Assembly: GCA_963804525.1 (NCBI GenBank)
Contig: CAWDQO010000006.1
Coordinates: 154,500 to 218,499 of the forward strand
Source: an uncultured Thermoplasmata archaeon
GTDB lineage: Archaea > Thermoplasmatota > Thermoplasmata > Lutacidiplasmatales > UBA184
Direction: 5' to 3'
Length of the DNA: 64,000 bases
The notes beneath the pieces were generated by a model, which worked only from the letters and a program-made list of their open reading frames with translations, was not told where the DNA came from and did not search any database. Positions 35,694 to 53,483 of the stretch are shown one piece after another. Positions within the stretch are counted from its first letter, which is position 1. Every line of letters begins with the position of its first letter. A program made the position numbers and the translations under genes.

Positions 35694-35714
35694 CGGTCCG
35701 CCACGCCGTCGCCG

Positions 35715-35724
35715 GGATTTAAGG
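35715..35724 (-). promoter_or_regulatory. TATA-like element for the 32316..35693 gene
   Basis: The minus strand reads CCTTAAATCC, centred about 27 nt upstream of ATG 35693, which is consistent with a leaderless transcript. Confidence 0.35.
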
Positions 35725-35801
35725 TGCCGAACCGACGTCGCCGTCAGACGGCGCCAGCGCGTCGGAAAGGGTTGCGGGGTGTCCGCGCCAATCGCCCGAC
35801 G

Positions 35802-38800
35802 TCAGCTGCTCGGCGGCGGGCTGCCACCGTAGGTTCCGCCGTAGGTGTCCGAAGCGCCCTCAGCGCCCTCCGGGGCTCCCATCGAGCCTTCCGGGGGAGA
35901 CGACGAGTCGCCGCCACCGCCCCGGCGCCGCATCAGGACGACCGCTGCAATCGCCGCGACGAGGACGACGACCACGAGAATCCCGCCGATCAGGAGTGGG
36001 GAGATTCCGGACGCGGAGCTGTTGGTTCCCTTGACCGGGCAGCTGTCGTTGAGGTTGCACGGCGGGACGACGACGACCGACTTGTTCAGGACGAACGTCA
36101 CGGGCGCGGTGAGCTCACCGGGCCGGACGAATACCTTCGCGGACGTCGTGTTGTATCCCGTCGCGGTCACCGTGACGGTCCAGTAGACGTCTCCGAGCAA
36201 CGTGACGTTGAACGCGCCCCCCGGCGCGATCCGCTGGTCCCCCCGGCTCCGGTGCCCGTGGTGTGGCTCGCGTTGACGGCCGTCAGCACCGCGACACCGA
36301 GCGCCGTGATGGGGGTGATCGTCCCGATGAGGAACCCCAAGTTCGTCAGTTCGACCGAGATGGTCGACGTCTTGCCCGGGGTCACGGTCACGTTCTGGTA
36401 CGACGTGTTGTACCCGGACGCCGTCGCGACGACCGCCTGCTTCCCGCCGAGGGTCGACTGGTTGAACGTCGCGCCCGTGAACGTCGAGACGGGCACGCCG
36501 TCGACGGTCACCGCCAAGCCGGGGTACGTACCGGCGAGGGTCCCCCGGATCCAACCACCGACGAGGGTGATGGTGTTCGAGGTCGTCGTGCTCGGGCTGA
36601 CCGTCACGAGCTTGCTGAAGTTCGTGACACCGGTCCCCGACGCGTTGAGCCAGTAGTTGCCCCACGTCTCCGTGACGTTGTACACCCCGTCGGTCGCGTT
36701 GATGGCGACTGCGTGGTTGTTCAGGAGGAGCGTCGCGGTGACCGGGCTGATCCGTCCCGCAATCCAGCCGACCGTCTTTACGAGGTTGATCGAGACGACC
36801 GTCGTGGACCCCGAAGCGACGTCCACCATGTGGTTGAGCAGCGGCTGGTAGAGGTTCGAGGCGGAGGCGTTCAGGAAGTACGTCCGGCCGCTCGCGACCG
36901 AGTAGTTGAACGTCTCGGTCGTCGCGTTGAACCCGTGCAGACTGACGACCGCGCCATCAATCGTGAGACGGGACTGGGTCGTGTTCGGGGAGAAGAACCC
37001 CGCGATGAACGCGCCCGGCACGTACACGTACGTCACGAACAACAGGTCGCCACCGGTGTAGTTGAACGTGTCGGAGAACGCGGTGGTGTTCACCGCCCCC
37101 GAGAAGTTCGAGAACGACGAGACCGTCGTGAGGTTGTGCGGGAACCAGCCCGGCGCCGAGATCGAGTGCGTCGTCCCGATCGCCCACGCCTCCGCGCTGG
37201 GAAGCGCGAGGGTCTCGACCGCCCCATTCGTCGTGACCGTCAGGTTCACGTTCGTGATGTTCGTGTCGAAGGCGACGGGCTCGGCGAGGGTCACCATCAC
37301 CGAGGTGTTGTAGCTGTTCGTGCAGCTGGACGACCGGCAGTCCATCCAGGTCGCGTACGTCCCCGCGTTCGTCGCGGCGAGGCCGTTGTAGAACCCGATG
37401 GTAATCAGCCCCGTCGCGAGCACGCCCGACGCGCTCGTCAACTCCGAGGAGACCGACCAGGTCGACCCGGCGTTGGTCGAGTAGATCGCGTAAAGGTTGA
37501 GGTCCCCCGTCGATTCGCTCATTCCGTAGAAGCTCACCCAGATCGTCCCGTCCGGCGACACCGAGATCGCGGGCTCGAGGTAGGCCGTCGACTTGGTCGC
37601 GGCGGTGAGGATCTTCGCGCTCGACCACGTCGAGCTTCCCGAGGTCCGCTCCTCGAAGCCGATGGCGGGGTATCCCTGGTCCGAGCTGCCGACCGATTCG
37701 TTGTCACTCCAAACGAGGTAGCTGTTCCCTTCGTACGTCGAAGTGGTCGAGCCGTCGATCGCGAAGCTGGGAACCGTCGAAACGATGCTCGTAAACGGAT
37801 TGTCCGTGACGATGAACGAGTCCGGCGCCGACGACCCGACCCAGAGCATGTCGACGTTCGGGGTGGAGTCGGTCGCGGAGGGCGTACTCCAGGTCACTCC
37901 GTTGTTGGTCGAGGAGACCTCGTCCCAGTTGGTCACCCAGGCTCCGGTCGTGGAGTCCCGGGTCGCGTTCCCCCAGTCCGAGTAGACGATGTCGTCGACG
38001 CCCGGGCCGATCGCGACCCGCGGGTCGAACGAGATGTTCCCCGAGACGTTGACGGGGGTGGACCACGACATTCCGCCGTTCGCGGAGACCGAGGCCTGCA
38101 CCCGGCCGGAAATGAAGAAGTTGCAGACCCCCGCATCGAACTGGAGGTGGAACAGGTCCCACGTCGTAACCGCGACGTCGGTCGTTGTGTTGATTGCGAC
38201 GGAGGGGTCCAGGGGGACGTTGTCAAAGTAGTAGCCGGACGCGTAGCCGACCGCCTGGCAGGTACTCGACATCGTCAGGTAATCGACGTACGTCTGCTGC
38301 TCGACGACCGTCGTGTTGACCCAACTCGCTCCGCCATCGATCGAGCGGGCGACGGAGATTCCGGCCGGAGCCTCAATCCCCGGGGCGCTCGTGCAGTTCC
38401 CGCCAAAGGCGACGCACTGGGGCAGGAACTCGTCCCCGAGGAGGACCGTGCCGTCGTTCGCGGCCGCGAGAGTCACCGAGGCGAACGGCGGGGGGCCGTT
38501 GGTGACCGGGTAGTAGAAGCCCTGGAGCGAGCCGTTCGTCGGGCTCGACGGGTTGAGCCAGCTCGAGTTCTGCGGGAGCCAGTTCGGAGTCCACGTCTGG
38601 CCGCCGTCGGTCGACCGCTCGGTCTCGACGAAGCCGTGCTGGTAGAGTTGCGGGGAGATCGACGAGGACGAGCAGAACGACCCTCCGGAGCCGCTGTAGA
38701 GGAGGTAGTCCGAACTCAGACCTGCGAGAAGCGTCTGGTTTGTCCCGTTGATCGCCGTCAGTGCGGAAGTGGTCGAGCACGGGGCGTTCAGGTACGTGTT

Positions 38801-39202
38801 GCCCGCCAGCGCTTGCGGCAGGGGGGTGGCGCCGAGGCCATCGAGCGAGTGCGATTGCTCCGTGGCAAGTCGGGCGCTAATCGGTTCGTTGAGGGTCGCC
38901 ATCGAAATGGCCGGGTTGGCGCGGAGCTCCTGGACGATCGCTGGGAGGGAGTTCGCCGGGCTCGTCGGGGCCGGCGACGCTCCCGGGACCGTGAGGTTCG
39001 CCGGGGCGGCGGAGCTCGGCATCGGCAGCGAGCCCGCGAGGGCGGGCAGCGGAAGCGCCATGAGCACGGCGACGGCGACCGCCAGGAAGGCGGCCGCGCG
39101 GATCGTCCGGAAAGGTCGGGTGGTCGTTCGGGTCGAAGCGCTCGCGCCGTCGGTCATGGGGGTTGCGGTCATCGTTGATTCTCCATATTTGACTCTTGTC
39201 AT
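35802..39202 (-). CDS. large surface protein with Asp-box (BNR) beta-propeller region and C-terminal beta-sandwich repeats, TM anchor; frame broken in this assembly
   Basis: Five SxDxGxTW-type Asp boxes (STDGGQTW, SIDGGASW, SANGGMSW, STNNGVTW, STNAGSTW). The signal is FLAVAVAVLMALPLPALAG. ORF 36167..39202 continues in ORF 35802..36665 (..GAFNVTLLGDVYWTVTVTATGYN...TM LLIGGILVVVVLVAAIAAVVL plus a Gly/Ser/Pro tail). The break is at a C6 run (36239-36244). One added base gives 3402 nt, or 1133 aa. Confidence 0.8.
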
Positions 39203-42200
39203 GCCTCGCCTTCCGGGGGAAGCGCTGGCATCGTGTACTCGGCGTTGTCCGGGGTGCCCGGCTCGGCCCCTTCGGTCGGTGCCGCCTCCGGCGCTGCGTC
39301 CGCCGCGGGGGACGCCGGCGCCAGAGCGCGAAGCCGACGAGGGCGACGACCGCGAGCGCGGCGACCCCGAGGATGAGGAGGTCCGAGGTCGGGATCCCCG
39401 CCGAGCCCGACGCGGCGGTCACGACGACGATCGACTGGCTCTCTGTCGCCGTCCGGTTGTACGGGTCGGTGACGGTCACCGTCACGACGTACGTTCCGGG
39501 GGACGAGTAGGTGTGTTCGGTGAAGTTCGCAGGGGTCGTGAGCGCCGAGCCATCGCCGAACTTCCACGTGTAGCTGTAGGTGTACGGCGGTACAAGCACG
39601 GCGACCGCGGCCGACAGGAGGACGCTTTCGCCCGCGAGCGAGCCGGTCGGGACCTGGAGGGTGAGGACCGGGGGAACCGGTTCGTAGACCGCGGTCAGCG
39701 TGCCGTTGCCCCCGACAGTGAGGTTCGTGCCGGTGATGTTCAGCCCACCGGTCGTGTTCAGGGCGGTGAGGACGTCCCCGAGGCACGGCGCGGGGTGGGT
39801 CGCGTAGACGCCGTATGTGAGGTTCAACGACGAGCCGTTCGTCTCGGAGACCCCGGCGAGGTAGAGCGACCCGCACGCGGCCGGAGTGATGAGGACGGTG
39901 ACGTTGTAGGCGGTCGGCGTGAAGATCGCCGTCACAATCGCGTCGGAGGAGAGATAGACCGACCCGTTCACGATGATCGCGCCGACGGTCGCGCTCCACG
40001 ACTGGAACGAGTAGTGGGCGCACGGGAGGGGAGCGATCGTGTACCCGTAGTCCTCGGTGAGTTCGGTCGTGGCGTTGCTCGTGTACGATTGACCGGCGAG
40101 CTCGACCGAGCCGCACCCGGTCGGGCTCGTCTCGACCCCGACGCTCGCGAGCGGCCGGAACACCGCCTCGACCGACCCGCTCGAGTTCACGTAGGCGACC
40201 CCGTTCGCGACGACGACCCCGCCGGTCCACTCCCACCGGACGAACCCGTTCCCCGCGCAGGGGGTCGCGGAGATGGGACCGGAAGTGTTCGCGGGGACGT
40301 TCGTGTAGTTGGTATCGTACCACCGGAGCCCGAGGTACGAGATCGACCCGCAGGTGCCGGGGTCGGTCTGGAACTCGAGGAACGACGACGGGGCGCTTCC
40401 GGTGAGCCAGACCCCGAACAGCGTCCCGGAGTCGTTGACGGTGAGCACGCTGCCGAACAGGTCCATCCCCATCGTGGGGGTCAGGCCGAACTCGTAGTGG
40501 CCCGAGCAGGAGTTCTGGGAGACGACGTGGGTCGTGTTGTTCTGGACGACGAGGACCGTGCCGTTGTGTTCGAGGGCGCCGTCGAACTCGACCGTGCAGT
40601 ACGAGGGGCTCGTCACGATCGTCACCTCGGTCAGGACGTAGTTCTGCTCGAGGATCGAGCCCCCCGCCGTGACGGTCAATTGGTCGCCCGCGAGCGAAGC
40701 GCCCCCGGACGTCAGGAAGTCCCGGAACCCGTAGTGGGCGCACGGGTCGGAGGCGACCGGGTACGCCGTCGAGTTGACGAAGAGGCTCGTCCCATCGGTG
40801 TAGCCGACCCCGCGGTAGAGGATGGCGCCGCACGCCGCGGGGGCCGTATCGAACGTGAGGGACGCGCCGGCGCTCGACGTGATGTAGTTCGCCGTCAGCG
40901 TTCCGTTGCCCCCGGCGATCAACGTGTCGCCGACGAGCGTGAGGTTCCCGTCGAGGGTCCAACCGGCGAAGCTCTCCGAAGAACACCCGGTCAGGTTCGC
41001 CACCGACGCCGGGATTCTGTACCCGGAGGCTGACCGCCTGGCCGGCGTTGTAGACGACCCCGTCCACCTCGACCGAGCCGCAGCCGGTCGGGGCGGTCGT
41101 GAAGTTCACGACCACGAGGGGGCGGACGTACGTCCAGTTCGCGGTCACGTTGCCGGTCCGACTCACCGAGAGGTTTCCCGCCGTCCCGTTGGAAGCGATG
41201 ACCTGGAGGCCCGGGGAGGTCGTGTAGTGCGAGAACACGAACGGGTAGCACGAGGACGAGGAGATCGGGTAGAGCCCTGGGGGCAGGGTCACCGTCGAAC
41301 CGTTCGTGTAGAGCGTCCCGTTGAGCGTCACGTTCGTGCAGAACGCGGGGATCGTGAAGGCGGTGACCTGGAAGAGCGGCAGCGCTCCCCGGAAGACCGT
41401 GTACGGTTGGCTCGTGACGTGGATGCCGGCGTCGTTCGTGACGACGACGGTGTAGTTGATCCGCCCGTTCACCCCGGACGGGATCGTGGCGTTGTAGACG
41501 CCCCGCTGGCTCGTGCCCGAGACCCGCGACATCGCGAGGGTGGTCACGGCGCCGCCGTTGAGGGTGTAGTTGAGTTGGACGCCCGCGACCGACCCGAGGT
41601 CGGAGACGTGGGCCGAGACGTTCAGGCCGAGCGTCGGGCGCAGATAGCCGGCCCGGCTGTTGTTGTCGACCTTGTCGATGAACGTCGGCACGAAATCGTG
41701 CTGGAACGGACCGTTCTGGATGTACTCGGTGTAGAAGCCCCCGAAATCGTCGAGCGTGTACGGCCCGTCGTCCCCGAAGTTGAGCTGGGAACCGTTCCAG
41801 GAGAACCACGGGTAGAACCCGGTTCCGCCACCCGAGTTGTAGTTCGGACAGTTGGCGACCGGGACCACCGCCGACGAGCTGCACTCCGCGCTGGCGGAGA
41901 CCGGAGCGAAGGTACCTGGTAGTCCCCCGAATACCCCGCCGATGCGTTGACCCAGTACTCCGGGATCCCGAAGCCGACCGACGGGCTCCCGTCCCAGACG
42001 GTCTGGTTGTACGAATTGCACGCCGCGACCAGCACACCGAACGGGCAGATATCCCACCCGAGGCCGAGGCCGACCGGAATCGTCCAATTGAGGAAGCACA
42101 CGTCCGGGCACGACGAGTTGTAGTACGGATGGAACGAGAACGAGCCGGTGTTCGCCGCGCTCAGCTGGAAGCTGATGTTGTTCGCCGGCAGCGGGTCGGT

Positions 42201-42938
42201 CGAGTCGTTCGCCCAGACCCAGAGGCCGGTCGTCTCGTCGATGCCGCCGTCGAACGTGACGTTGTACCAAGTGTTCCCGGCGATCCCGGAGGGGCCGGCG
42301 AATCCCGAACCGTTCCCGATCTCGTCGCCGACGCACCAGAAGCTGTTGTTCCAGACGAGGGTCATGTTGGAGACCGCGCTGCTCCCGCAGGCGGTCGCCG
42401 AGGCAGATTCGTTCCGCAGCGACCACACCTGGAGCGAGAGCGACCAGTACACGGTCGAGTTCACCCCGGTATCGTTCGGCTGGAACGTCAGCTGAGCGTA
42501 CGACTGGCGGAACGCGCTCGCGGGGTCGCCCCCGACGACCATCCCGACGAAGAAATCGTTGTAGGCGTACGGCTGGCCGGGCGACCCGCCCGTCGGCAGG
42601 TAGACCGGCTCGGTGAACCGCTCCCCGGAGCCCGGCGCGCTCGAGGAGAAGATCCCGTGGACGGTGTCCTGGGCGATCGGTCCCGGGCACGTCTGGTACG
42701 CCTGGATCGGGCTGGGGGGGAGGTAGTTGCCGTCGAGTCCGTATCCGAGCGGCGGGTTGGGGCACCCGAACGCCGGACGGGGCGCCGCCGGAGCAGCCGC
42801 CGCGTGGGCGGGGGAAGTTTGGGGCGCCGTCGCATTGACCGTCCCGACGCCCGCCCACCCGGTCGGGATCGCGAGCACGGCGAGGATCGCCACGATGCCG
42901 AGCGCGGTGGCCCAGTGGCGGGTCCGTCGAGCGTTCAC
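39199..42938 (-). CDS. large surface protein: novel N-domain, about 7 Cys-containing InlB-B-repeat-like modules, PKD domain, TM anchor; three frame breaks in this assembly
   Basis: GTG 42938 (MNARRTRHWATALGIVAILAVLAIP). The path runs ORF 41622..42938, then the frame of 39199..42858 (break near 41912-41928), then ORF 38877..41003 (break at GTACC 41019-41023), then the tail ...SPAADAAPEAAPTEGAEPGTPDNAEYTMPALPPEGEA (break about 39311-39322). Repeated modules include TAPTGCGSVEVDG / TSPTGCGSVELAG / ITPAACGSLYLAG, each followed by PC..Y.F..W. PKD signature YTWKFGDGSALTTPANFTEHTY. The corrected length is 3741 nt, or 1246 aa. Confidence 0.75.
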
Positions 42939-42989
42939 GGGGTTCCCTTCGAATAGGGGACGGCTACAAATGCCTTGGCCAGCCGGTTC

Positions 42990-43331
42990 TCACGACCGCC
43001 GGTCGGGGGAGCTCGGCGCGTCGCCCGGTCGGTAGATCTCGAAGCTCGGCACGCCGGCCACCGAGCCGTCGCCGCCCTCCTGTGGTGGGGCGGGTTTCCT
43101 CGGCCTGTCGGTCCCCTCCCGGAGGTCGTAGGCGAACCCGAGCCCGAGCGCGGCGAGGCACCCGCCGCCGATGGCGACGACGACCGGCAGCCAGGCGTGG
43201 TACGGGATCGATTTCGACCCGGGGAGGTACGGGAACCCGACCCCGATGACGAAGACGAGGAGCCCGAGGAGTCCGATCCCGGCCCACGTCGAGGCGTCGA
43301 GCCGGTCGCGGACCCCGTCGACATCAACCAA
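42990..43331 (-). CDS. small 2-TM membrane protein
   Basis: TTG 43331, 113 aa. TWAGIGLLGLLVFVIGVGFPYL and AWLPVVVAIGGGCLAALGLGFAY are hydrophobic helices. It lies between the AAA ATPase and the next surface-protein gene. Confidence 0.5.
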   Translation of the reverse strand: MVDVDGVRDRLDASTWAGIGLLGLLVFVIGVGFPYLPGSKSIPYHAWLPVVVAIGGGCLAALGLGFAYDLREGTDRPRKPAPPQEGGDGSVAGVPSFEIYRPGDAPSSPDRRS

Positions 43332-43419
43332 GGGGGCCTCCGGTGAGCGCGGGCGGACGTCGGCGACGGGGGCGGGGCGCGACCGGCGAATGCCATCGTC
43401 CGTCCCGCTCCCCCCTCGA

Positions 43420-46400
43420 CTACCCGCGCGTTCCGTACCGACCGGATGAAGTCCTGCGCCCAGGCGAGGGTCTCGGGCGTGATCGACGAGTGGGTCTTCT
43501 CGACCGCCTCGAGGAGGTTCTCCATGCGGACGCCGACGACCTTGCTGACCGGCTCGATCTTCGCTCCGGGGGTTCCGGCCGCGACACCCGCGTGGCCCGT
43601 GGTCGTCCCGGCCTGGAACAGGCCGAACCCGCCGCCCCGGTCCGAGGCGTCCTTCGTCTCGGTGACGAGCTGTTCGCGGAGCGCGATCAGCTTTGCCTCG
43701 TCGACAACGCTCGCGATGTCGGCGCCGGAGAACCCGTCGGAGAGCTTGGCGAGCTGGCCGAAATCGACGTTCCCATCGACCGGGACCCCCTTCAGGTGGA
43801 TCCGGAAGATGTCGGTCCGCGCCGAGATGTCCGGGGGCGGCACGTAGAAGATCTTGTCGAACCGCCCGGGCCGGAGCAGGGCCGGGTCGAGGGTCTGGGG
43901 CCGGTTCGTCGTCGCGATGATGATGACCTTGTCCTTCGGGCGCAGGCCGTCCATCTCCGTGAGGAACTGGCTGACGGCGCGCGACACCTCGGGGGTCTTC
44001 ATCGAATCCTTGCTCGCGAGCGCATCGATCTCGTCGAAGAAGACGATCGACGGCGCATTCTCCCGGGCCCGATAGAGGACGTCCCGGACCGCGGCTTCCG
44101 ATTGGCCCGCGAGGGCGCTGACGAGCTCGGGTCCGTTGACGATCTGCATCGGGACGTTGAGCTCGTTCGCGGCGGCCCGCATGACGTGGGTCTTTCCGCA
44201 GCCCGGTGGGCCGAACAGGAGGATCCCCCGGCCGGTCTTGATCTTGTAGCTCTCCATCAGCTCGGGGCGGGTGAGCGGGAGCTCCACGTACTCGCGGATC
44301 GCTTGCTTGATGTCGACGAGGCCCCCGACATCGTCCCAGCGGACGATGATCTTCCGCTCCATCCGCTGGACCTGGTGCATCTTCCGCTCGTAGTCGAGCT
44401 TCATGACCTCGTAGTCCGAGATCATCCGCAGGCTGATCGACGGCTTGATCCTCGGGAGGACCTGCCGGAAGTCGTCCATCGCGATCGGGCTCCGCACGCC
44501 GGTCATCATCTCACGCCGGACCGCGATCGTGGCGGCTTCCCGGACGAGGTTCGCAAGGTCGGCGCCGCTGTACCGCTCGGTCTTCTTCGCGATCTCCGAG
44601 AGGTCGATGTCCTGCGCGACCGGGCGTCCGACGAGGTGGACGTGGACGATCTCCATCCGCTCGTTGAAGTCGGGCGGCGGGACGTAGATGATCTTGTCGA
44701 GGCGGCCCGGCCGCATGAGCGCCGGGTCGATCAGGTCCGGCTTGTTCGTCGACCCGACGACGATGACGCCGGCCGACTTGTCGATCCCGTCCATCTCGGA
44801 GAGAAGGATCGAGAGGAGCCGGGGGGTGACGTCGTCCGCCGTGTACATGTCGCGGCGCTTCGCCACCGAGTCGATCTCATCCATGAATAGGATGCACGGC
44901 GCCCGCTCGCGGGCCGTCCGGAGGAGCTCCGCGACGCGGTTCTCCGACTCTCCGTACCACTTGCTCATCAGGTCCGAGCATTTGATCGAGATCATCTCGA
45001 CTCCGAGCTCGCTCGCGAGCGCCTTCATCAGCATCGTCTTCCCGCAGCCGGGGGGGCCGAACAGTAGGATCCCCTTCGGCGGCTCGAGCTTGAAGCGGGT
45101 CGTGACGTCCTTCCGCATCAGCGGGATGATCATCGATTCCTTGATGTCGGCCTTCACGTCGTGAAGTCCGCCCACCATCTCGAACGTGGTCTTGGTGAGC
45201 CCCTTCATCTCGGCGACCCGGGTTCCGACGTTCGTCCCGCCGAGCGGCTCGTGAAGTACGCCTCGAACGCGTCGCGGATGACGAGCGACCCCGCGGTCGC
45301 CGTGATCATCGCCGGCACGAACAGGAGGACGACCACGTCCCACCACCCGAGGTAATTGAACGCCCAGAACGCGCCGAACGTGACGCCCGCGAGGACACCG
45401 CCGCTCACGACCGAGTACCTGGAGCAGCCGCTCGGGGGTCTGCCCCTCGCGCTCCTTCATCGCCCAGGTGACGAGCCAGGCGGCGAAGCACCAGGCGCCG
45501 ATCTCCACGATCGGGATCGCGATCAGCCCGAGGCCGCTCCCCCCGAGGGAGAGGACCTGCGGGTTCGGCGTGAGCATGTTGGTGTAGGCGGCCCCGATCG
45601 CGTTCAGGGTGAAGTACGGAAACGGCAACGTCGGTTGCAACGCGGCCGCATGGCCCGCGATCAGGCTGGGTGTACCGTTCGCCCCCGGACCGGCCAGGTA
45701 GCCGAGGATCGGCAGGTTGCCGAGCGTGACGAACAGGGCGACAAGGAGCCCTCCCGCGACCGCGACCGCGAGGCCGATGTACAGCGAGAAGATCATCGCG
45801 AGGAACACCGGAACCACGAACGAGAGACCGAGCGGGGCCAGGAACAGCGTCAGGAACGTTCCGATCCCGAATCTCCAATCGATCAGCGACGCGAACAGGA
45901 CCGGGATCGCCGCGAACAGGAAGATCAGACCGAGCGTGCCCGACTGGTACCCGACCTCCGGGGCGACGAGCAGCACGAGAACGAGCAACGACAATTGCGG
46001 GAATCGCCAGGCGAGGAATCCCACCCCCGCAGCGATGAACAGGACGATCGGCCACGGATAGAACGGCAAGAAGAAGCCGCCCAGAAGCGCGGTGATCGCC
46101 ATCAGGATCGCCGTGAGGTGCTTCGGGTCCTTCGTCTGTCGGACGAACCACCGCTCGATCTTCGCCGCGGCGAACAGCGCGGCGGCGATGCAGGCGAGGC
46201 CGACCGCGAGGAGGAAGATGAACAGGTCGTCGTAGAGGATCGCCGGCCGACCGTACTGGATGTATTGCTGGCCGATCGCCACCGACTGCGCGCCGCCCAG
46301 CCCGTGCTGGATGGCGTTCGTGGTCGCGTCCGCGGCGGCATCGAGGGTGAGGTAGCCGTTCGTACCGAACGGTCCGCCGGGCAATTGCTCGCGGACGATG

Positions 46401-47077
46401 GTGAACGTCAGGATGACGGGGGTCCCGGCCGAGACCCAGTTGACGTTCCCGGAGAACGTCGCGAAGAGGTTGTCCGCGAGCGATGTCTCCGAGCTCCGCT
46501 GGCCCGACGGGAGGTTCGCGATCGAGGCGAACGCGAGCGTCGAGGTGTCGGTGGTCGAGTTGAACGAGATCGAGCGGACGTTGTCCATGAGCACGACCGT
46601 CTGCCCCGCGGAGAGCCCGCTCGCGGTCAGTTCGACGTAGTTGACCGCCTTGTTGCTCGACTGGACGGCGTGGGCGTTCTGGAGGAACTGGCTCGCGGTC
46701 TCGGCATGGACCACGTCCGGATAGAACCCGACGAGGAGGCCGGCGCCGACCCCCGCGAGGATGATCCCGACGATGAGCAGCACGAGCATCGTGCGCCGAC
46801 CGGTCTTCCGGGGCGGGGCACGGGGAGGCGCCTTCGCCGGAGCCTTCGGAGGGGCCCGGATCGCGGGTGCGCCGGTCTTGGTCGCCGGGCGGATCGCCGT
46901 CTGGCTCGCCGCGGGCGCTGCCTTCGGGTTGGCCGCCGCGGCGGGGCGGGGCGTGGTCGCCACCGGGCTCGGGGCCGTGCCGACCGGTGCGGTCGCCGGA
47001 CTCGGCGCCGTCCCGCTCGGGGAGGTCGCCGGAGACGAGTTCGGCGTACTGGTGACCTTGGTGCTGGGTGTTCCCAT
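43420..47077 (-). CDS. polytopic-membrane tandem AAA+ ATPase (Cdc48/VAT-like D1-D2 fused to an approximately 10-TM N-terminal domain); three frame breaks in this assembly
   Basis: ATG 47077, preceded by GGAGAGAGAG. The order is about 95 aa of Pro/Ala/Thr-rich region, TM1 (MLVLLIVGIILAGVGAGLLVGF), a 190-aa loop domain, about 10 TM, then two AAA modules (GPPGCGKT twice; Walker B ILFMDEID and IVFFDEID; second-region-of-homology arginines). There is a compensating frame excursion between GTACC 45415-45419 and about 45240-45258 (alternative frame = ORF 45205..45408, TM-like GVLAGVTFGAFWAFNYLGWWDVVVLLFVPAMI). Removing one base at GTACC 43435-43439 ends the protein at TAG 43420-43422 (..AQDFIRSYGTRG). 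Otherwise it reads 160 aa of R/S/G/P-rich sequence across the next gene. The corrected length is 3657 nt, or 1218 aa. Confidence 0.8.
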
Positions 47078-47097
47078 CTCTCTCTCCGTATCGGCGG

Positions 47098-49011
47098 TTA
47101 CAGCGTGATCCGTCTCTGCTCTTGCTCGGCCTTCTTCCGGCGCTCGCGGAACCAACTGCTGACCGGCCAGACGGCCACCGCCGCCCCGATCAGGCCGAAG
47201 ACCGCAGGAATCGTGATCGTCGTTTGCTGGACCCAGCTCGACTGCGCCACCGAGCCCGACGCGACGTAGAAGATCAGGTCGAACGGCGTAGTCGAACTGA
47301 CCGTGACCGTCGCCGTCTGGGACTGGCCGAACGCGTGGATCGTGACGACGTACGTTCCGTACGTCACCGCGAGGTAGCCGGTCCCCGCGAGCGGCGAGGG
47401 GGCCGCGAACCCGAGGGCGGTCCCCTGCCGGGTCTCGGCCCAGCTCGCATTCGCGAGGGTGAAGTTGAGGAAGGGCACGAGCTGGCCGGTCGATAGGTCG
47501 ACCGCCTCAAAGTAGAACAGCCCGTATCCCGGGGCGAGGGTGAACCCGCCCGGCCCGGCCTGGGGGAGCCCGGTCTCGGTGTACGTCCAGTTCCCCGAGG
47601 CGATCGGGGTGCCGAAGATGTCCTTCGCGATGATGTAGAACGACACGGTCCCGCCGGCGGGGAGGCCGGGGATGAGGGCGTACGAGGTGTTGTCGCCGAC
47701 CGGGATCATCGGGAGGACGGCGTTCGAGAATCCGGCGGCGTCGCTGTAGTGGACCCGGACCTGGGCTTTCCCGAACGTCACGTTCTCGGTCAACTCGTGG
47801 ATCGAGACGTTCACCGCCGTCCCGGAGGGAAGGGTCGTCTTTGTCCCGGTCGGGGCGAGGACGTTCGGCGTCGTCGAGATCTCGGCGTTCCGAATGAGCC
47901 CGTACGAGGGGTACCACCATCCCCCATCGGTGGTCCAGTGGAAGTTGTACGTGGGGCTCGTGATCTTGTCGATCTCGCCGCCCTTCCAGGGCAGGTATGC
48001 TTGGATGGAGAACGAGCCGTTCGACCCGGGCGCCGGGGGTACGGTGGCATTGGTCACCGTCGTGTTGAGGGGGGCGAACGCCACGCCATAGGTGGCGGAG
48101 GTGTCGTTCGTGAACTCCCGGATCGTCAGGAACGCCTTCGGGATCGTCTGGAGGGACCCGCCGACGACGGAGATCGACGTGAGGAAGATCTCGAGCGACT
48201 GGTTGCGATTCGGGTCAAAGATGTTCGGCGCGATGACCGACGGCGTAGTCGTCACCTGGATGTCGCTCGCGAACGTCGTCGATGCCCACGGGGGTTCGAC
48301 GTAGAACGCCCAGGTGTAGTTGTCGATCAGCCCCGAGTCGTTGTACTCGTAGCTGTACCCCTCGGAGGAGGAGTAGATCGTGCTGGGGGTCGCCTGCGCG
48401 GACTGGATGGTGATGTTGAAGTACACCGTCGAGCCGGGCAGGAGGTACCGGTAGAGGTCGAACCAGAACGTCGCGGTCGTCCGCGCCGGGGTCGCGATCG
48501 CCGCGCTGAAGTTTTCCGGCTGCAGCGGGTCGAACCCGGGGATGGCCGGGGGTGCCTGGGTGCCGTTCGGCCAGCTCGTTCCCCAGACCGTCACGACCGC
48601 GTTGACCATCTGGACGTTGGTCGTGATGTTCATGAAGAACCCGGTGAGGTCGGTCGGCAGGTCGTTCGTGCAGAGACCGGTGCTGAACCCGCCTCCGTCG
48701 AAGACGGGAGAACCTGGGACGTAGAAGCTGACCTCGACGTCGTCGAAGAATGCGAGGCTGCTCCAGTGCGGAGGGTTTTGCGGGGTCGGCTGCGAGCAGG
48801 TTTGGGCGCGGGCGTCGGGCTGGGCCGCTGGGGCAGCCACCGCCGGTGCGGCGGCCACGAACGGCGCGGCGGTCGCGTGCCCGCCCGGGGCGACGAGGGA
48901 CGTTGGCCCACGCACCGGCGCCGCGGACGTCTGGGCCATCAGGGGAGCGACGAGTAGCAACGCCACCGCGACGAGGACGAAGCCGACCGTGGCGGCGCGG
49001 ACGTTCGTCAC
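47098..49011 (-). CDS. surface glycoprotein candidate, family A (paralog of 49008..51155), C-terminal TM anchor
   Basis: GTG 49011 overlaps the upstream stop (GTGA). Signal or anchor VGFVLVAVALLLVAPLMA. 637 aa rich in N-x-S/T. C-terminal ITIPAVFGLIGAAVAVWPVSSWF plus RERRKKAEQEQRRITL. Confidence 0.7.
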   Translation of the reverse strand: MTNVRAATVGFVLVAVALLLVAPLMAQTSAAPVRGPTSLVAPGGHATAAPFVAAAPAVAAPAAQPDARAQTCSQPTPQNPPHWSSLAFFDDVEVSFYVPGSPVFDGGGFSTGLCTNDLPTDLTGFFMNITTNVQMVNAVVTVWGTSWPNGTQAPPAIPGFDPLQPENFSAAIATPARTTATFWFDLYRYLLPGSTVYFNITIQSAQATPSTIYSSSEGYSYEYNDSGLIDNYTWAFYVEPPWASTTFASDIQVTTTPSVIAPNIFDPNRNQSLEIFLTSISVVGGSLQTIPKAFLTIREFTNDTSATYGVAFAPLNTTVTNATVPPAPGSNGSFSIQAYLPWKGGEIDKITSPTYNFHWTTDGGWWYPSYGLIRNAEISTTPNVLAPTGTKTTLPSGTAVNVSIHELTENVTFGKAQVRVHYSDAAGFSNAVLPMIPVGDNTSYALIPGLPAGGTVSFYIIAKDIFGTPIASGNWTYTETGLPQAGPGGFTLAPGYGLFYFEAVDLSTGQLVPFLNFTLANASWAETRQGTALGFAAPSPLAGTGYLAVTYGTYVVTIHAFGQSQTATVTVSSTTPFDLIFYVASGSVAQSSWVQQTTITIPAVFGLIGAAVAVWPVSSWFRERRKKAEQEQRRITL

Positions 49012-51155
49012 AGCGTCACCCGCTTCTCTTCTTCCTTGCGGCGCATCCGGATGTGGCGCCACCACATGTAGAGCGGAATCGCCGTCCCGATGGTCGCGAG
49101 CGAGGCGATCAGGGTCGCGAGCGGGAGGTCGCCCGTCCCGGGCGACGGGACCGAGGGCGAGATGGTCGGCGGGGGGGCGGTCTGGTTGAGGTAGAAGAGG
49201 AGCGCGTTCCCCTCCTGCACGACATAGTAGTTGTTCCCCGCAACCAGGGTCTGGCGCGTCGTCAACGAATGCGTCGCATAGACGGTCGCGTTGAGGGGCA
49301 CGCCGTTCGCGAATCCCGGGTCGACGACCGACACCATGTACGATTCGTTCGCCGCCAGAAGGAGCGGGAAATACTCCTGCTGCGAGGCGTTCGGGTACGC
49401 GACGCCGAACACGGTGTAGCCCAACGAGTTGAAGAACCCGCGCGGTCCGAGGACCTGCACCGACGCGTTCGACACCCAGTCGTGCGTTCCATTGTCGTAG
49501 ACGAAGACGTAGAAGAATGACGCATTCCCCGGCACGAACGGGATCGTCGCCGCGAACGACGGAGTCAGGTACGAGAACTCGGGGGAGATCAGCTGGTGCT
49601 GGTCGAAGTCCCAGGCATCGATCGTGAAGTTCACGAACGACCCGACGGGAAGGCCGGGAAGCGTCCCGACGAAGATCGTCGAACTCACCCGCACCATCGG
49701 GACGTCGGTGACGACCCGCTCCCCAATCGCGGGGTAGCTGAAGTACTCGACGATCTCGGCCGCGTTGATCGCCGTTCCCGGATTCAGGCTCGTCGCCGTG
49801 ATGTTGACGTCCTGCCCGGGGTTGACCGAAACGCTGACGCCAGCGGCGGCGGCGACGGCGGCCGGGGAGGAGGTCACCCCGATGTCATCGGTGAAGGTTC
49901 CGGAGAGGAACGACCCGTTCCCGCCGACGGTGTAGGTGTAGTAGGGGGTCTGGATCTGGTCGCCGGCGATGTCGGACGCGACGATCTGGTAGGAGACCAC
50001 CGCCCCGGCGACCTGCGCGTACTGAGGTCCGATCACGTACGATGTCGTGACCGCTCCCACCGAGCCGTTGCCGCTGGTCGGGAAGGAGAAGGCGGTGTCG
50101 TAGAGCGTGACCGAGTTGTCGGTCTCGAGGAAGCGGAGCTGGGCCGACCCGATCGTCGCATTCGTCGGCGACCCGTCCTGCAGCGTGGTGTTCACCACGA
50201 CGGTCACCGAGTCGTTCCAGTTCGGCGCGAGCGGGTGGACCGACGGGGTGATGTCGTTGAACGTGGCGTTCGGGCCGTCGGACTGCGGGATCCCGGGGTA
50301 CGGCGAGAACGGCCACGCCTGCCCGTAGGTGAACTGGAACTTCGGCCCGAGGAAGTGGGTGAAGTCGTTCCCGCTTCCGGTCGTCAGCTCGACCCACCAG
50401 GTGAGGGTCTCGCCGGCGAAGAAGTTCTGGGTCCCGGTGCTCGAATTCGCCGCGATATCGAGGTTGTACCAGTAGGGGTACGAGGGGTCCTGGGTATGGA
50501 ACACCGGCCCCGACCACCAGGTGTCGTTGTCCGCATGCCAGACGGTCCCGTCGTCCGGGGTCTGGTACGTGTCTCCGTTCCAGAGGAGGCCCGTGACGTT
50601 GAGCGCGATCGGGCTCTCGGGCCCGTACTTCGGGGAGTCCGTGGGCGTGATCTGGTAGCGGGACTTGAGGTCGAGTTGCAGGTCGGTCCTCGGGGTGGGC
50701 TCGACCGGTGCGAAGTACCCGCCGGCGGCGGGCACGATGTTCGGCTCGTACGAATCGGCGATGGAGATGCACACCGTCGTGTTGATCTTCGCGCAGTTCG
50801 GATTGAACGAGGTGTTGTTGGCGGCGGCGAGGGAGGCCGGTCGGGCGGACGCCGCCGGGACCGCGGGATGGAGCGCAGCGGAGGGACCGACCGCTGACGG
50901 AGGAACCGCCGCCGGGCCCGCCCCGCCGGCGGCACCGGCGGTTGCGCTCGAGAGCCCGCTCGCGACCAGAACGACCAGGACAGCGACGGCGCCGAGCGCG
51001 ACGAGGCGCGGGGTCCACGTTCGGCGGGGGCGGGGGTGCTGCGATCCGGACGACCGGTCCACGGGCGTTCCACTCCTAACGGACTTTCTGGCGCGCGGGC
51101 CATCGACGGACCGCGCTGGGACGAGAGCAGTCGACACTCGAGGGGGTGGTCCCAT
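49008..51155 (-). CDS. surface glycoprotein candidate, family A, C-terminal TM anchor
   Basis: Up to 715 aa. Signal or anchor LVALGAVAVLVVLVASG. C-terminal LATLIASLATIGTAIPLYMWW plus RHIRMRRKEEEKRVTL. The start may be GTG 51137 or GTG 51062 rather than ATG 51155, because the TATA-like element is only about 11 nt from 51155. Confidence 0.7.
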   Translation of the reverse strand: MGPPPRVSTALVPARSVDGPRARKSVRSGTPVDRSSGSQHPRPRRTWTPRLVALGAVAVLVVLVASGLSSATAGAAGGAGPAAVPPSAVGPSAALHPAVPAASARPASLAAANNTSFNPNCAKINTTVCISIADSYEPNIVPAAGGYFAPVEPTPRTDLQLDLKSRYQITPTDSPKYGPESPIALNVTGLLWNGDTYQTPDDGTVWHADNDTWWSGPVFHTQDPSYPYWYNLDIAANSSTGTQNFFAGETLTWWVELTTGSGNDFTHFLGPKFQFTYGQAWPFSPYPGIPQSDGPNATFNDITPSVHPLAPNWNDSVTVVVNTTLQDGSPTNATIGSAQLRFLETDNSVTLYDTAFSFPTSGNGSVGAVTTSYVIGPQYAQVAGAVVSYQIVASDIAGDQIQTPYYTYTVGGNGSFLSGTFTDDIGVTSSPAAVAAAAGVSVSVNPGQDVNITATSLNPGTAINAAEIVEYFSYPAIGERVVTDVPMVRVSSTIFVGTLPGLPVGSFVNFTIDAWDFDQHQLISPEFSYLTPSFAATIPFVPGNASFFYVFVYDNGTHDWVSNASVQVLGPRGFFNSLGYTVFGVAYPNASQQEYFPLLLAANESYMVSVVDPGFANGVPLNATVYATHSLTTRQTLVAGNNYYVVQEGNALLFYLNQTAPPPTISPSVPSPGTGDLPLATLIASLATIGTAIPLYMWWRHIRMRRKEEEKRVTL

Positions 51156-51318: not shown

Positions 51319-53425
51319 TCACCCGAACGAGCCGACCCCGCCGCCCTTCTTGGCGCTCGCCGCATCGAACTTCGACCCCATCGGGCCGGACTTCGCCGCG
51401 ACCCGCATGGCCACCGGCTTGTTCTTCATCTGGACCCGCACGAACCCCGCGCCCAGGAAGCCGGCCGCGGCCGCCTGCAGCGAGATGTTCGCGACCCCCA
51501 CGTTGTTCCCGATCCCGATCTGCTGGACCACCGGAAGTGGCGCCGGCGCCGCGATCGCGAACGGCGGAGGCACCGGGGGCGGCGGCGGCGGGGCGACCCC
51601 CGCCGGGCCAAGACCCGGGGTCAGCTCGACGTTCAGGTTCGCGAGCGGGAACGACTCGGTCACGAGCGAGTTGTTCGTGTACGGCACGAACGTCGCCGCC
51701 GAGTAGAGGCTATCGACCGCCGTGCTGCCGCCCGCGTGGCATTGCGCGGTCGTGCACGCGTCGACCGGCACCGTCCGGAACGGTCCGCCGACCGCGATCA
51801 CGTTGAACGATGCGGTCCACGTGTCCCCCACGAACATCTGGTTCTGCGACGCGTTCGAGCTCCAGTTCCACCCGAGGAACTTCACTCCGCCGACGTTGTA
51901 CTCGACCGGGGTCCCGCATCCCTTCAGGTCGAGTCCCGCCCGCTGGCACTGCTCCGACGGGTCGAGGATCGAGGCGTTCGCCATCGCGATGTTCCCGAAC
52001 GGAACGAACGTGAAGAGCGGCCGGTTCGACCCGGCGGCGACCTGCGTCTCCAGGATCGGCCCGAACCCGACCTCCCGGAACGCTTCCAAGAGGGTCGGAT
52101 TGTTCAGGTTCGGTTTCGTCGCCGGACCGTGCGGCACATACTGCAACGTCCCGGTCTGGCCGTTCGGACACGTGAAGAACGAAGGACCGTCCCACGTCCC
52201 GCCCGTCGCCGCCGCCATGTCGCATCCCGCGAGGAGCACGTGCTCGACATCGTTCACGACCGCCGAACCGCCCGGTCCGCCGTTCGTCCGGCCCGCGGGC
52301 CATCCCTCCGATAGCGGGTCGGTCGAGGTCGTCCAGAGGTCGATCATGTCCACCGTGCAGACACCCCCGATCGAGTCGGTGCACGTCGGGGAGGTCTTCG
52401 TGAGCCGGGCGATCGAGTCGTTGATGTTCCCGTCCTGGCTCCGGACCCATCCCTCGCAGTTGGGGCTGCTGCCGTCGAGGAACGTGTACGAGGGCTCGCA
52501 GGTCGGCGTCTCGCTGCAGCCGGGGTCGCCGGAGTAGTCAGAGGCGCTGACGCAGTAGTTCTCGATGTAGTTCGGGTCCCGGGGCGCGGTCGACCCCATC
52601 CAGACGATGACGTGGTGGGTCGCCTCCGACCACGTGAGGCCGCTCCCGATGATCGTCCCGTAGAGGGCCGTGATCGAGCGAGGAGTGGAGGATGTTGTCC
52701 GAGAAGTCGGAGTCGGGATACACGTACCCGCCCCCGAGGACCTCCGCCTGGAACGTGGAGGTCACCGCCGAGCCGAAGTCCTGCGACGGGACGAACTGCT
52801 GGATGTCCACGTGGTACTCCGAGCCGTCCCCGTCGTCGAACTTGTCCTTCGTCGCGAAGTAGTCGACCATGGCGAACGAGACGTGCGAGTGGGGGTTCGC
52901 CTCCGAGATCGCGTTCGCGATGTCCTGGGCGTGCGCCACGAAGAACGGCACGCCGTTCGACTCCTCGCACGCGGTGGTGCCGGTGATGGCGGCGCACGGG
53001 TCGGATCCGGGGTCGTCCGGAGTGGGGTCGTAGACGCCGTCGTAGAGGGTCGTCTCGATGACGAACGCGACCTGGACGTTCGGCCACGCGAGGTGGCCGG
53101 AGCTGTCGGCATCGGCGGACAGGGTGACACGGGAGATGCCGGTCCCCGCGGAGCAGCCCGACTCATCGTAGGCGCAGATCGCCCCCGGGGTGTCGGAGAT
53201 CCCGAGCGTGAGCGCCCCGAACGTCGAGGAGGGGGCCGGGGTGGCCGAGACCGACGCGCCCGAGGCAGGTCCCTCGTGGGACGCCATCCCCGCGACGGCG
53301 ACCGTGGTGGCCGACCCGGGGATGTACGAGAACGTGACGAGGGCGAGCGACCGCCGCCCGCGGCTCGTCGGCGAGGCTACGACCCGCTCGGCCGCCCCGC
53401 TCGGCTTCGGGGTCCGGTCGCTCAT
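51319..53425 (-). pseudogene. Cys-rich secreted protein, family B, copy A (tandem duplicate; frameshifted and with shortened signal sequence)
   Basis: ORFs 52538..53530 (from ATG 53425, MSDRTPKPSG) and 51319..52599 together equal copy B. The frame is lost at 52676-52678 (GAG in place of AT in copy B, SSLDHGP.. versus SSMITALYG). The hydrophobic core AGTLVLLAL of the copy-B signal or anchor is absent (RSLALVTFSYIPGS). Confidence 0.65.
51331..52675 (-). repeat. near-identical 1.34-kb segment of a 2165-bp tandem direct duplication (copy A)
   Basis: Same sequence as 53496-54840 at a constant offset of 2165 nt. The translated ORFs in all frames are identical except for 2-3 single-residue differences (for example EYNVGG versus ESNVGG). 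Confidence 0.9.
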
Positions 53426-53483
53426 GCCGTTTCCCCCGCGGGCGGGCGGGTCATGGACCCCCGGTCCTAACGATTCGGTCAGC

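Follow-up and report, generated by a model that had tools for sequence, protein, structure and literature searches.

What an AAA ATPase could do in the archaeal envelope when its two ATPase modules share one polypeptide with a large polytopic membrane domain, and whether such a polypeptide exists as a single gene product at all, is the question raised by a minus-strand gene at positions 43420 to 47077 of a 64,000-nucleotide stretch of contig CAWDQO010000006.1 (assembly GCA_963804525.1), derived from an uncultured Thermoplasmata archaeon and referred to here, at its full length, as the window. The original prediction, made from the letters alone, described this gene as a Cdc48-like double AAA ATPase fused to about ten membrane helices and readable only after three single-base corrections. 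In the analysis reported here the encoded protein, an integral-membrane type-II classic AAA ATPase, is read, by analogy with characterised AAA proteins, as the centre of an envelope machine that is conserved in, and specific to, Thermoplasmata and in which a hexameric motor oriented like FtsH or Msp1 would pull polypeptide out of the membrane; a probability of roughly 0.45 is given to this reading. New are the membrane-domain family and the conserved gene module, whereas membrane-anchored AAA unfoldases are already known in kind.

Gene and reading frame

The gene starts with the ATG at 47077 and, after three one-base corrections, ends with the TAG at 43422-43420 (Table 1). The deposited sequence contains an open reading frame (ORF) of 1406 codons that is uninterrupted in a single frame (42935..47155, minus strand); at the G+C content of the window, about 70%, off-frame ORFs remain open, and the true frame is marked by the G+C content at third codon positions (GC3). 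The GC3 plot follows one coding frame from 47077 to about 45420, passes to the +1 frame until about 45244 and then returns to the original frame, the signal moving beyond about 43400 to the frame of a separate ORF of 113 amino acids (aa). Within the shifted segment GC3 stays above 0.9, and homologues are continuous across both junctions (...QTPERLLQYSVVSGGVLAG...EAYFTSRLGGTNVGTRVAEMKG...), reading EAYFTSRLGGTNVG at the position of the second break.

The closest species representative, Ca. Lutacidiplasma silvani AcS3-62 (locus L010, on a SPAdes-style contig), carries an intact ORF of 1223 aa that is 92.6% identical to the corrected model over residues 37-1218. A homologue of 1222 aa (P0011) is unbroken in two assemblies, and most of the approximately 80 loci examined have a single uninterrupted ORF, so that the membrane and AAA parts had rightly been joined into one gene. 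Concerning the C-terminus, P0007 has a complete end, ...AQEFIRSYGTRG, which matches the third correction proposed originally, and since P0007 and about 45 other orthologues terminate in ...FIRSYGTRG, the stop was placed at 43420. All three corrections proved right by GC3, by the homologues that read through and by DNA alignment with L010, and the corrected model built here has exactly the predicted 1218 aa.

Because of the GC3 frames, the read-through homologues, the intact orthologue and similar frame switches in a neighbouring gene, the three breaks are, as judged from sequence comparison, single-base sequence errors and not biology. That they are genuine, the locus being a pseudogene or two to three separate genes for a membrane protein and a soluble AAA protein, is regarded as highly improbable: although the deposited window does contain three indels and several further family members (P0004, P0005, P0006 and P0009) are likewise broken up in their public gene calls, the shifted segment keeps its high GC3 and is about 90% identical to the orthologues, the ORFs are intact in short-read assemblies, the neighbouring gene shows comparable switches, and the source of the window is taken to be a long-read assembly. 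The four split public records are truncated or run into Arg-rich off-frame sequence, the break in P0009 lying 6 nucleotides away from the first error of the window. Indels or contig ends have thus left much of the family in pieces in the public record, a partial reason for its having been overlooked.

Both inserted bases in the AAA gene are an extra G immediately 5' of GTAC (45418/9 and 43438/9), and the two GC3 frame switches of the neighbouring gene (about 41021 and about 41914) are located at GTACC sites as well. Over the whole window, frame switches coincide with 7 of 181 GTAC sites, which is not above random positions (4.7%), and with 5 of the 48 evaluable GTACC sites, modestly above the same random value; a systematic error at GTAC sites was thus not established by these counts. 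A methylated GTAC motif misread by the basecaller in a long-read assembly is possible.

Membrane half

All residue numbers refer to the corrected 1218-aa model, and the structure of the N-terminal part was read from the AlphaFold2 (AF2) model of P0001, a protein 87% identical to it that spans the entire N-terminal 634 aa (predicted local distance difference test score, pLDDT, 82; predicted template modelling score, pTM, 0.77). The sequence of elements is largely the one predicted: a Pro/Ala/Thr-rich tail of about 95 aa (aa 1-96), a transmembrane (TM) helix (aa 97-118), a loop domain and about ten further TM helices, which by AF2 secondary structure and loop charge are TM2, eight spans of the core and one hairpin. 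The loop domain itself was recovered, but its length is about 160 aa (aa 119-279) and not about 190 aa. In the P0001 model, pLDDT is below 50 at residues 1-3, 14-26 and 28-62, and the first element of secondary structure begins at residue 83; the basic cluster PRKTGRR ahead of TM1 would fit an N-in topology. The loop domain has weak OB-fold-like matches in the PDB, e.g. 4gop_B (Foldseek probability 0.93, TMt 0.47, E 0.18), and the cytoplasmic amphipathic helix that follows TM2 (aa 306-318) bears in the alignment the family motif (E/Q)TKxPxxL.

The conserved core consists, according to the AF2 helices and the loop charge, of eight spanning helices and one short helical hairpin (residues approximately 402-430), together with a loop of about 50 aa that lies outside and bears no charge. 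With the charged loop REREGQT and the DWRFG turn taken as inside, no other topology of this model leaves the AAA part in the cytoplasm. The family alignment reveals the invariant motifs PFYPW, YQ..G..F, W(R/K)FG, G..F..P and P......W(C), the invariant residues being limited to P, F, Y, W, Q and G. Identity of the core with archaeosortase/exosortase, rhomboid, CPBP or S2P was considered and rejected, since no catalytic Cys, His, Ser or Glu is conserved. Between the last TM helix and the first AAA module, D1, the alignment and the P0002 model from AF2 show a linker that is short and flexible; it holds the family-invariant motif (V/I)GTR(V/I)x(E/D)M, which is VGTRVAEM in the window protein.

Pfam yielded no match to the core for 12 diverse core-only sequences, even at E<=5, and with the whole ORF nothing in the N-terminal half, whereas NCBIfam had no match to the core and none across the N-terminal 634 aa represented by P0001. 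The Cdc48 N-domain is accordingly absent, as had been claimed, from both sets of matches to that part. The search of the P0001 model against the PDB with Foldseek returned no fold at E<=0.001, and Hrd1, Derlin, Doa10 and EXP2 exhibit in it no fold similarity to the membrane part. By these comparisons the core is a family of its own, matching no described model or fold.

AAA modules

Pfam recognises PF00004 twice and PF17862 (AAA_lid_3) twice in the C-terminal half of the ORF, in agreement with the two complete modules, each with GPPGCGKT and DEID, that had been seen at the outset. D1 has all features of a classic-clade AAA unfoldase (Walker A and B, sensor 1, Arg fingers and aromatic pore loop 1): its Walker A and the pore loop S(K/R)WYGESE are found in essentially all of the approximately 80 loci, and the Walker B DExD, the sensor STNKP and the Arg fingers RPGRxD are conserved in the family. 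The second module, D2, is intact only in the clade of the window (GPPGCGKT, FFDEID, TTNRP, RPGRFD); in other clades the acidic pair of its Walker B is gone (VEIE, TDIE, TGLED, ENVE, SDID) or the module is shortened. Since the D1 motifs are near-universal whereas D2 is degenerate outside the window clade, D1 is, to judge from conservation, the conserved motor, D2 being probably a nucleotide-binding assembly or regulatory ring. The pattern of pore loops and activity is thus unlike that of p97, with an aromatic motor D1 and a D2 that has ALAG here and is catalytically degenerate elsewhere.

Concerning their relatedness, both modules score best in NCBIfam against the D2 half of the CDC48 profile (positions 450-731; 278.7 and 273.2 bits), followed by PAN (253 and 249 bits) and FtsH (233 and 224 bits). 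In BLASTP both are nearer to VAT D2 than to VAT D1, and they share 46% identity with each other. The D1 model superposes on p97 D2 with a TMt of 0.85-0.87, the closest structures being p97/Cdc48 D2, and the best PDB matches by sequence are VAT (5vc7, 5g4g) and p97. The best NCBIfam match, TIGR01243, remains below its curated cutoff of 802.65 (539 bits for P0011 and 374.5 bits for P0023), and FtsH, with 463 bits, likewise falls short of its cutoff (600). The proposed Cdc48/VAT-like D1-D2 arrangement therefore holds for the tandem of classic AAA modules, but not beyond it, both modules being D2-like and the CDC48 cutoff being failed.

Neither Peptidase_M41 nor Lon domains are among the Pfam matches of the window ORF and the family members. 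The HbYX motif, defined for proteasome docking with archaeal Cdc48 members included (PMC3493965), is not present at the C-termini over the approximately 80 loci, the window protein ending in ...SYGTRG with Tyr at position -5; docking to the proteasome was rejected for this reason. The C-termini of other clades carry acidic-Trp tails (DDDWD, EIDWE, NDWEGS) or long extensions. One such extension, in the distant member P0025 (locus L006), ends in LEDVCREFGLKPYGKKIVLQERLHDYL, which by eye is SAP motif-like.

These features bear on the idea that the protein is a general quality-control dislocase for membrane proteins that would replace FtsH and pass extracted proteins to the 20S proteasome or LonB. 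The FtsH-like order of membrane anchor, outside domain and AAA, the presence of FtsH among the top NCBIfam matches of both modules, and the delivery of substrates to the proteasome by Cdc48-type ATPases in Thermoplasmata, which are without PAN (PMC3493965), are consistent with it; the absence of HbYX, the restriction of the family to one phylum and a tight conserved linkage to specific surface-protein genes, which argues for a dedicated and not a housekeeping role, make it unlikely.

Distribution and conserved gene module

A HMMER scan of 1.84 billion (1.84e9) representative proteins retrieved 41 proteins with the membrane core, and 90 loci emerged when one genome of each GTDB species was scanned with a sequence pattern, all of them in metagenome-assembled genomes of Thermoplasmata/Thermoplasmatota, including Lutacidiplasmatales and Methanomassiliicoccales. 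The fusion of core and AAA part is kept in at least 90 species of this group, and in all full-length members (1150-1401 aa) the core precedes the AAA modules, with core identities down to 24-30%. Searches with the membrane domain returned only Thermoplasmatota proteins and no Sulfolobales protein. The public names of the members are only "AAA family ATPase" or "hypothetical protein". Full-text literature searches found no description of a polytopic core combined with tandem AAA modules, and a paper on ESCRT and another on conserved archaeal membrane proteins are not about this family; the polytopic core and the gene module appear to be undescribed. That the architecture is unusual, as originally suggested, is borne out by a core that matches nothing in Pfam, NCBIfam or the PDB and by the lack of a describing paper in these searches.

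The AAA gene of the window lies downstream of the genes for two paralogous, secreted single-pass proteins, partners A and B, and upstream of that for a small membrane protein. Partner A is syntenic in L001, L002 and L010. The two proteins end in ...EQEQRRITL and ...KEEEKRVTL, respectively (47098-47151 and 49008-49061, minus strand), and this ending, in which a TM helix and then a Trp-plus-basic stretch precede the terminal E(E/Q)(K/R)R(I/V)T(L/V)-COOH, is shared by 75 upstream ORFs in 42 loci (including L001, L002 and L008-L059), with two paralogue types per locus. The RITL/RVTL-type ending, retained despite strongly diverged ectodomains and found in no family library searched, looks from its sequence like a docking or sorting motif.

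The partners are homologous to a unit of about 400 aa of ectodomain followed by a TM helix, with which the AAA polypeptide itself begins in other clades (BLASTP E 1e-7 to 3e-12), where a Lys/Glu-rich cytoplasmic linker connects this ectodomain-TM unit to the (E/Q)TKxPxxL helix. Because of this fusion, partners A and B are predicted to be, and probably are, subunits of one machine with the AAA protein, in which case the RITL end would be a docking element or the remnant of a linker. The suggestion that the ATPase acts on membrane-anchored neighbours is thus strengthened by the conserved cytoplasmic C-termini and the fused homologues, although the fusion itself points to subunits rather than to substrates.

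Synteny was compared across 87 loci. A homologue of the small membrane protein (100-146 aa) is encoded directly downstream in 62 of them, and the ectodomain module is present in every locus having upstream sequence. Immediately upstream of the AAA gene, 27 loci of one large clade encode a VWA protein that has a poly-Pro stalk and is anchored at its C-terminus, the start and stop codons of the two genes often overlapping. In the fused clade (L004-L007 and L060-L087), the upstream protein of approximately 450-490 aa begins with a signal or anchor, which is followed by a VWA domain bearing the DxSxS metal-ion-dependent adhesion site motif, and continues through a poly-proline stalk to a TM helix at the C-terminus; its gene often overlaps the start codon of the AAA gene, and acidic-Trp tails are frequent among the AAA proteins of this clade.

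Such loci also suggest mechanotransmission without threading, whereby ring movements would be conveyed through the core to an ectodomain crown and would switch adhesion or remodel the envelope, as in FtsEX, MacB or LolCDE. In this case the ectodomain proteins would act as built-in subunits, fused in one clade and docked by the conserved C-terminal motif in the other, and the VWA and FG-GAP domains of related loci are of the adhesion type. An aromatic pore loop is, however, a hallmark of polypeptide gripping. A pure conformational transmitter would not need the SKWYGESE loop that essentially all loci keep, and mechanotransmission is therefore given little probability.

Proposed mechanism

In the envelope machine favoured here, six copies of the protein would form a double ring beneath the membrane, with about 60 helices in the ring of their membrane cores and a crown of ectodomain proteins outside. 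The entry face of D1 would be directed toward the membrane, as in FtsH and Msp1, because the membrane domain is N-terminal to D1, at a distance of about 25 linker residues, and substrate enters the N-terminal face; to the authors' knowledge, all characterised classic AAA translocases (FtsH, Msp1, Cdc48/VAT) move their substrate from the N-terminal to the C-terminal face. The aromatic pore loops of D1 would grip the substrate, and the motor would take a cytoplasmically exposed tail or loop and pull the polypeptide from or through the core into the cytoplasm. Surface proteins anchored in the membrane would thus be dislocated or unfolded by a motor that has no protease of its own. D2, which most of the family has in degenerate form, would be mostly an assembly or regulatory ring. 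The adjacent surface proteins, i.e. the VWA proteins and the giant Ig-like or CarboxypepD_reg proteins, are candidates for substrates.

It should be pointed out that several observations weigh against such a pulling motor. The hexamer, the orientation of the ring and the threading would be features carried over from other AAA families, and in the AF2 monomer of P0002, comprising the membrane part and D1, the geometry between core and D1 is not fixed (pTM 0.53, linker pLDDT below 50). The invariants of the core include no catalytic or channel signature, so that it may be a conduit, a scaffold or a substrate selector. If the upstream proteins were permanent subunits, the motor would be left without an identified substrate, and no protease or proteasome-docking motif to dispose of the extracted protein was found in the AAA protein. 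Finally, no precedent among AAA proteins is known to the authors for a ring of six domains with 10 TM helices each.

A more specific form of the same mechanism, a self-contained archaeal retrotranslocase with a Cdc48-type motor, its own covalent conduit and docked ectodomain subunits that would extract or retract C-terminally anchored surface glycoproteins, is correspondingly more doubtful. If true, it would represent a one-polypeptide prokaryotic counterpart of the logic of Cdc48 plus membrane partner in endoplasmic-reticulum-associated degradation (ERAD), and the ...R(I/V)TL-COOH tail would then be a docking signal of a new type.

Comparison with known systems

With Cdc48/VAT/p97 the protein has in common two tandem classic AAA modules with lids, a D1 model that fits p97 D2 and TIGR01243 as the best NCBIfam match. 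Unlike these proteins it is an integral membrane protein, it carries membrane helices and a small beta-rich domain instead of the N-domain (the double-psi barrel CDC48_N plus CDC48_2), both its modules are D2-like and below the family cutoff, its aromatic pore loop is in D1 and not in D2, and neither HbYX nor a p97-type C-terminus is present. FtsH, Yme1 and the m-AAA proteases resemble it in the N-terminal anchor, the outside domain between TM1 and TM2, the short flexible linker to a classic AAA ring, the high-scoring AAA similarity and the putative membrane-facing entry side; they differ by the M41 zinc-protease domain (HEXXH), in place of which a second AAA module is found here, and by two membrane helices as opposed to about ten, the core being a separate family.

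Msp1/ATAD1 and Bcs1 act on membrane proteins and have one TM helix and one AAA module each. They are likewise classic-clade AAA proteins with an N-terminal TM anchor and no protease of their own, whereas the polytopic core and the ectodomain partners have no equivalent there. In its proposed orientation the protein is most like FtsH and Msp1, and in motor type most like Cdc48/VAT, being a member of neither family.

The original statement that archaeal AAA proteins are soluble or, as in Lon, possess only one or two TM helices is incomplete, since the membrane-bound AAA proteins (MBA) of Sulfolobus are on record as a cluster of their own beside Cdc48, PAN, AMA and Vps4 (PMC3493965). Compared by description only, MBA is similar in being an archaeal membrane-bound AAA protein; the membrane domains are not detectably related, the core searches having returned only Thermoplasmatota proteins. 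The primary description of MBA is reportedly that by Serek-Heuberger et al. from 2009.

In PTEX, the AAA unfoldase HSP101 and the membrane component EXP2 move polypeptide across a membrane. In ERAD, Cdc48 is likewise a tandem AAA unfoldase that cooperates with polytopic partners in the membrane, Hrd1, Derlin or Doa10, in moving polypeptide across or out of it (PMC7319771). Motor and membrane component are encoded separately in these systems, and recognition relies on ubiquitin, in contrast to the single polypeptide seen here.

With these proteins a membrane-protein family and a conserved C-terminal motif, both new, are established, and their genes offer a clean example of fusion and fission from which a complex can be predicted. 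The set of partners is defined, consisting of the two ectodomain proteins with RITL tails, the small membrane protein and, in other clades, VWA proteins. To the authors' knowledge, archaea are without FtsH, and the removal and remodelling of their membrane-anchored and surface proteins are poorly understood. In ERAD and in the extraction of proteins from organelles, the question of how motor and conduit cooperate involves many separate parts; if the present protein is a dislocase, it would offer a simple and genetically compact system for the cooperation of an AAA motor with a membrane conduit.

Surrounding island

The AAA gene is located in an island of secreted proteins of about 29 kb, all on the minus strand (approximately 32.3 to 61.3 kb) and flanked by housekeeping genes (Orc1/Cdc6, SerRS and others). 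It comprises the genes for a PKD protein, a BNR protein, a protein of about 1240 aa with frame errors, the small membrane protein, the AAA protein, the two ectodomain proteins with further paralogues, and a CarboxypepD_reg protein (Table 1). Pfam searches of the neighbours were mostly empty, with matches to CarboxypepD_reg, PKD and BNR only, and to VWA, Big_7 and FG-GAP in other loci. In related loci of other clades, VWA proteins and Ig-like proteins of 2300-2750 aa adjoin the AAA gene.

This neighbourhood could also speak for a motor of export or assembly, the rings of which would unfold precursors in the cytoplasm and drive them to the outside by way of a channel made of the six cores, so that the large surface proteins encoded nearby would be secreted or anchored; HSP101-EXP2 in PTEX and Bcs1 would be the analogues. 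The position of the gene within the island, the VWA and giant Ig-like proteins alongside it in other clades and a core large enough to form a conduit are in line with such a function. The neighbours begin, however, with ordinary N-terminal hydrophobic signal or anchor sequences, for which Sec export suffices, and the N-terminal face is tethered to the membrane by the linker of about 25 aa, so that threading would run away from the membrane; outward export is hence judged improbable in comparison with the inward pulling proposed above.

Table 1 Features of the AAA gene and its neighbours in the window
Feature	Position	Strand	Basis or remark
Whole gene, 1218-aa integral-membrane tandem AAA ATPase	43420..47077	-	ORF list, GC3 frames, homologues, L010 orthologue, corrected model
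Cytoplasmic N-terminal tail, aa 1-96, Pro/Ala/Thr-rich, basic before TM1	46790..47077	-	Sequence; AF2 of P0001
TM1, aa 97-118	46724..46789	-	Hydropathy; AF2 helix 83-111 in P0001
Extracytoplasmic loop domain, aa 119-279, beta-rich with helices	46241..46723	-	AF2 pLDDT roughly 70-98
TM2 (aa 280-305) and cytoplasmic amphipathic helix KIERWFVRQTKDP (aa 306-318)	46124..46240	-	AF2 helices; alignment
Conserved helical membrane core, aa 319-608, about 290 aa, containing frame error 1	45253..46123	-	Alignment; AF2
Frame error 1, extra G, CAG[G]TAC in the window vs CAGTAC in the orthologue	45418..45419	-	DNA alignment with L010; GC3 frame switch
Frame error 2, one base missing, AGCCG-CTCGG in the window vs AGCCGTCTCGG in the orthologue, original frame restored	45244..45245	-	DNA alignment with L010
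Linker between core and D1, aa 609-631, about 25 aa	45185..45252	-	Alignment; P0002 AF2 pLDDT <50, residues 600-617
AAA module D1, aa 632-902	44372..45184	-	Pfam, motif coordinates, conservation over about 80 loci
D1 Walker A GPPGCGKT, aa 674-681	45035-45058	-	
D1 pore loop SKWYGESE	44942-44965	-	
D1 Walker B ILFMDEID, aa 729-736	44870-44893	-	
D1 Arg fingers RPGRLD	44696-44713	-	
AAA module D2, aa 912-1137	43667..44344	-	Pfam, motif coordinates
D2 Walker A GPPGCGKT, aa 956-963	44189-44212	-	
D2 non-aromatic pore loop SALAGQSE	44096-44119	-	
D2 Walker B IVFFDEID, aa 1011-1018	44024-44047	-	
D2 Arg fingers RPGRFD	43856-43873	-	
C-terminal region, aa 1138-1218: Gly-rich spacer, helical segment, clade-conserved end ...FIRSYGTRG; containing frame error 3	43420..43666	-	P0007 C-terminus; C-termini over loci
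Frame error 3, extra G, TCG[G]TAC	43438/9	-	DNA alignment with L010
Partner A, 655-aa secreted sequon-rich protein, C-terminal TM helix, cytoplasmic end ...WFRERRKKAEQEQRRITL before the stop	47098..49065	-	Upstream of AAA gene
Partner B, 715-aa paralogue of partner A, C-terminal TM helix, end ...WWRHIRMRRKEEEKRVTL before the stop	49008..51155	-	Upstream
Small membrane protein, 113 aa	42990..43331	-	Downstream; GC3 frame
Large secreted sequon-rich protein, downstream of small membrane protein	39199-42938	-	Frame shift between about 41914 and about 41021, then return
BNR protein	36167-39418	-	Pfam
PKD protein	32316-35801	-	Pfam
Tandem paralogues, surface proteins without Pfam match	51319-53590 and 53484-55748	-	Both match one 715-aa L001 protein, 54-60% identity
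1708-aa protein, at least four CarboxypepD_reg domains	55987-61113	-	Syntenic with 1594-aa protein in L001

Two minor observations concern the remaining genes of the island. The large sequon-rich protein downstream of the small membrane protein contains another pair of compensating frame errors, and its N-terminal part is syntenic with a gene for a 397-aa protein in L001. The tandem paralogues upstream of partner B represent a local duplication, the first copy being apparently split into two ORFs.

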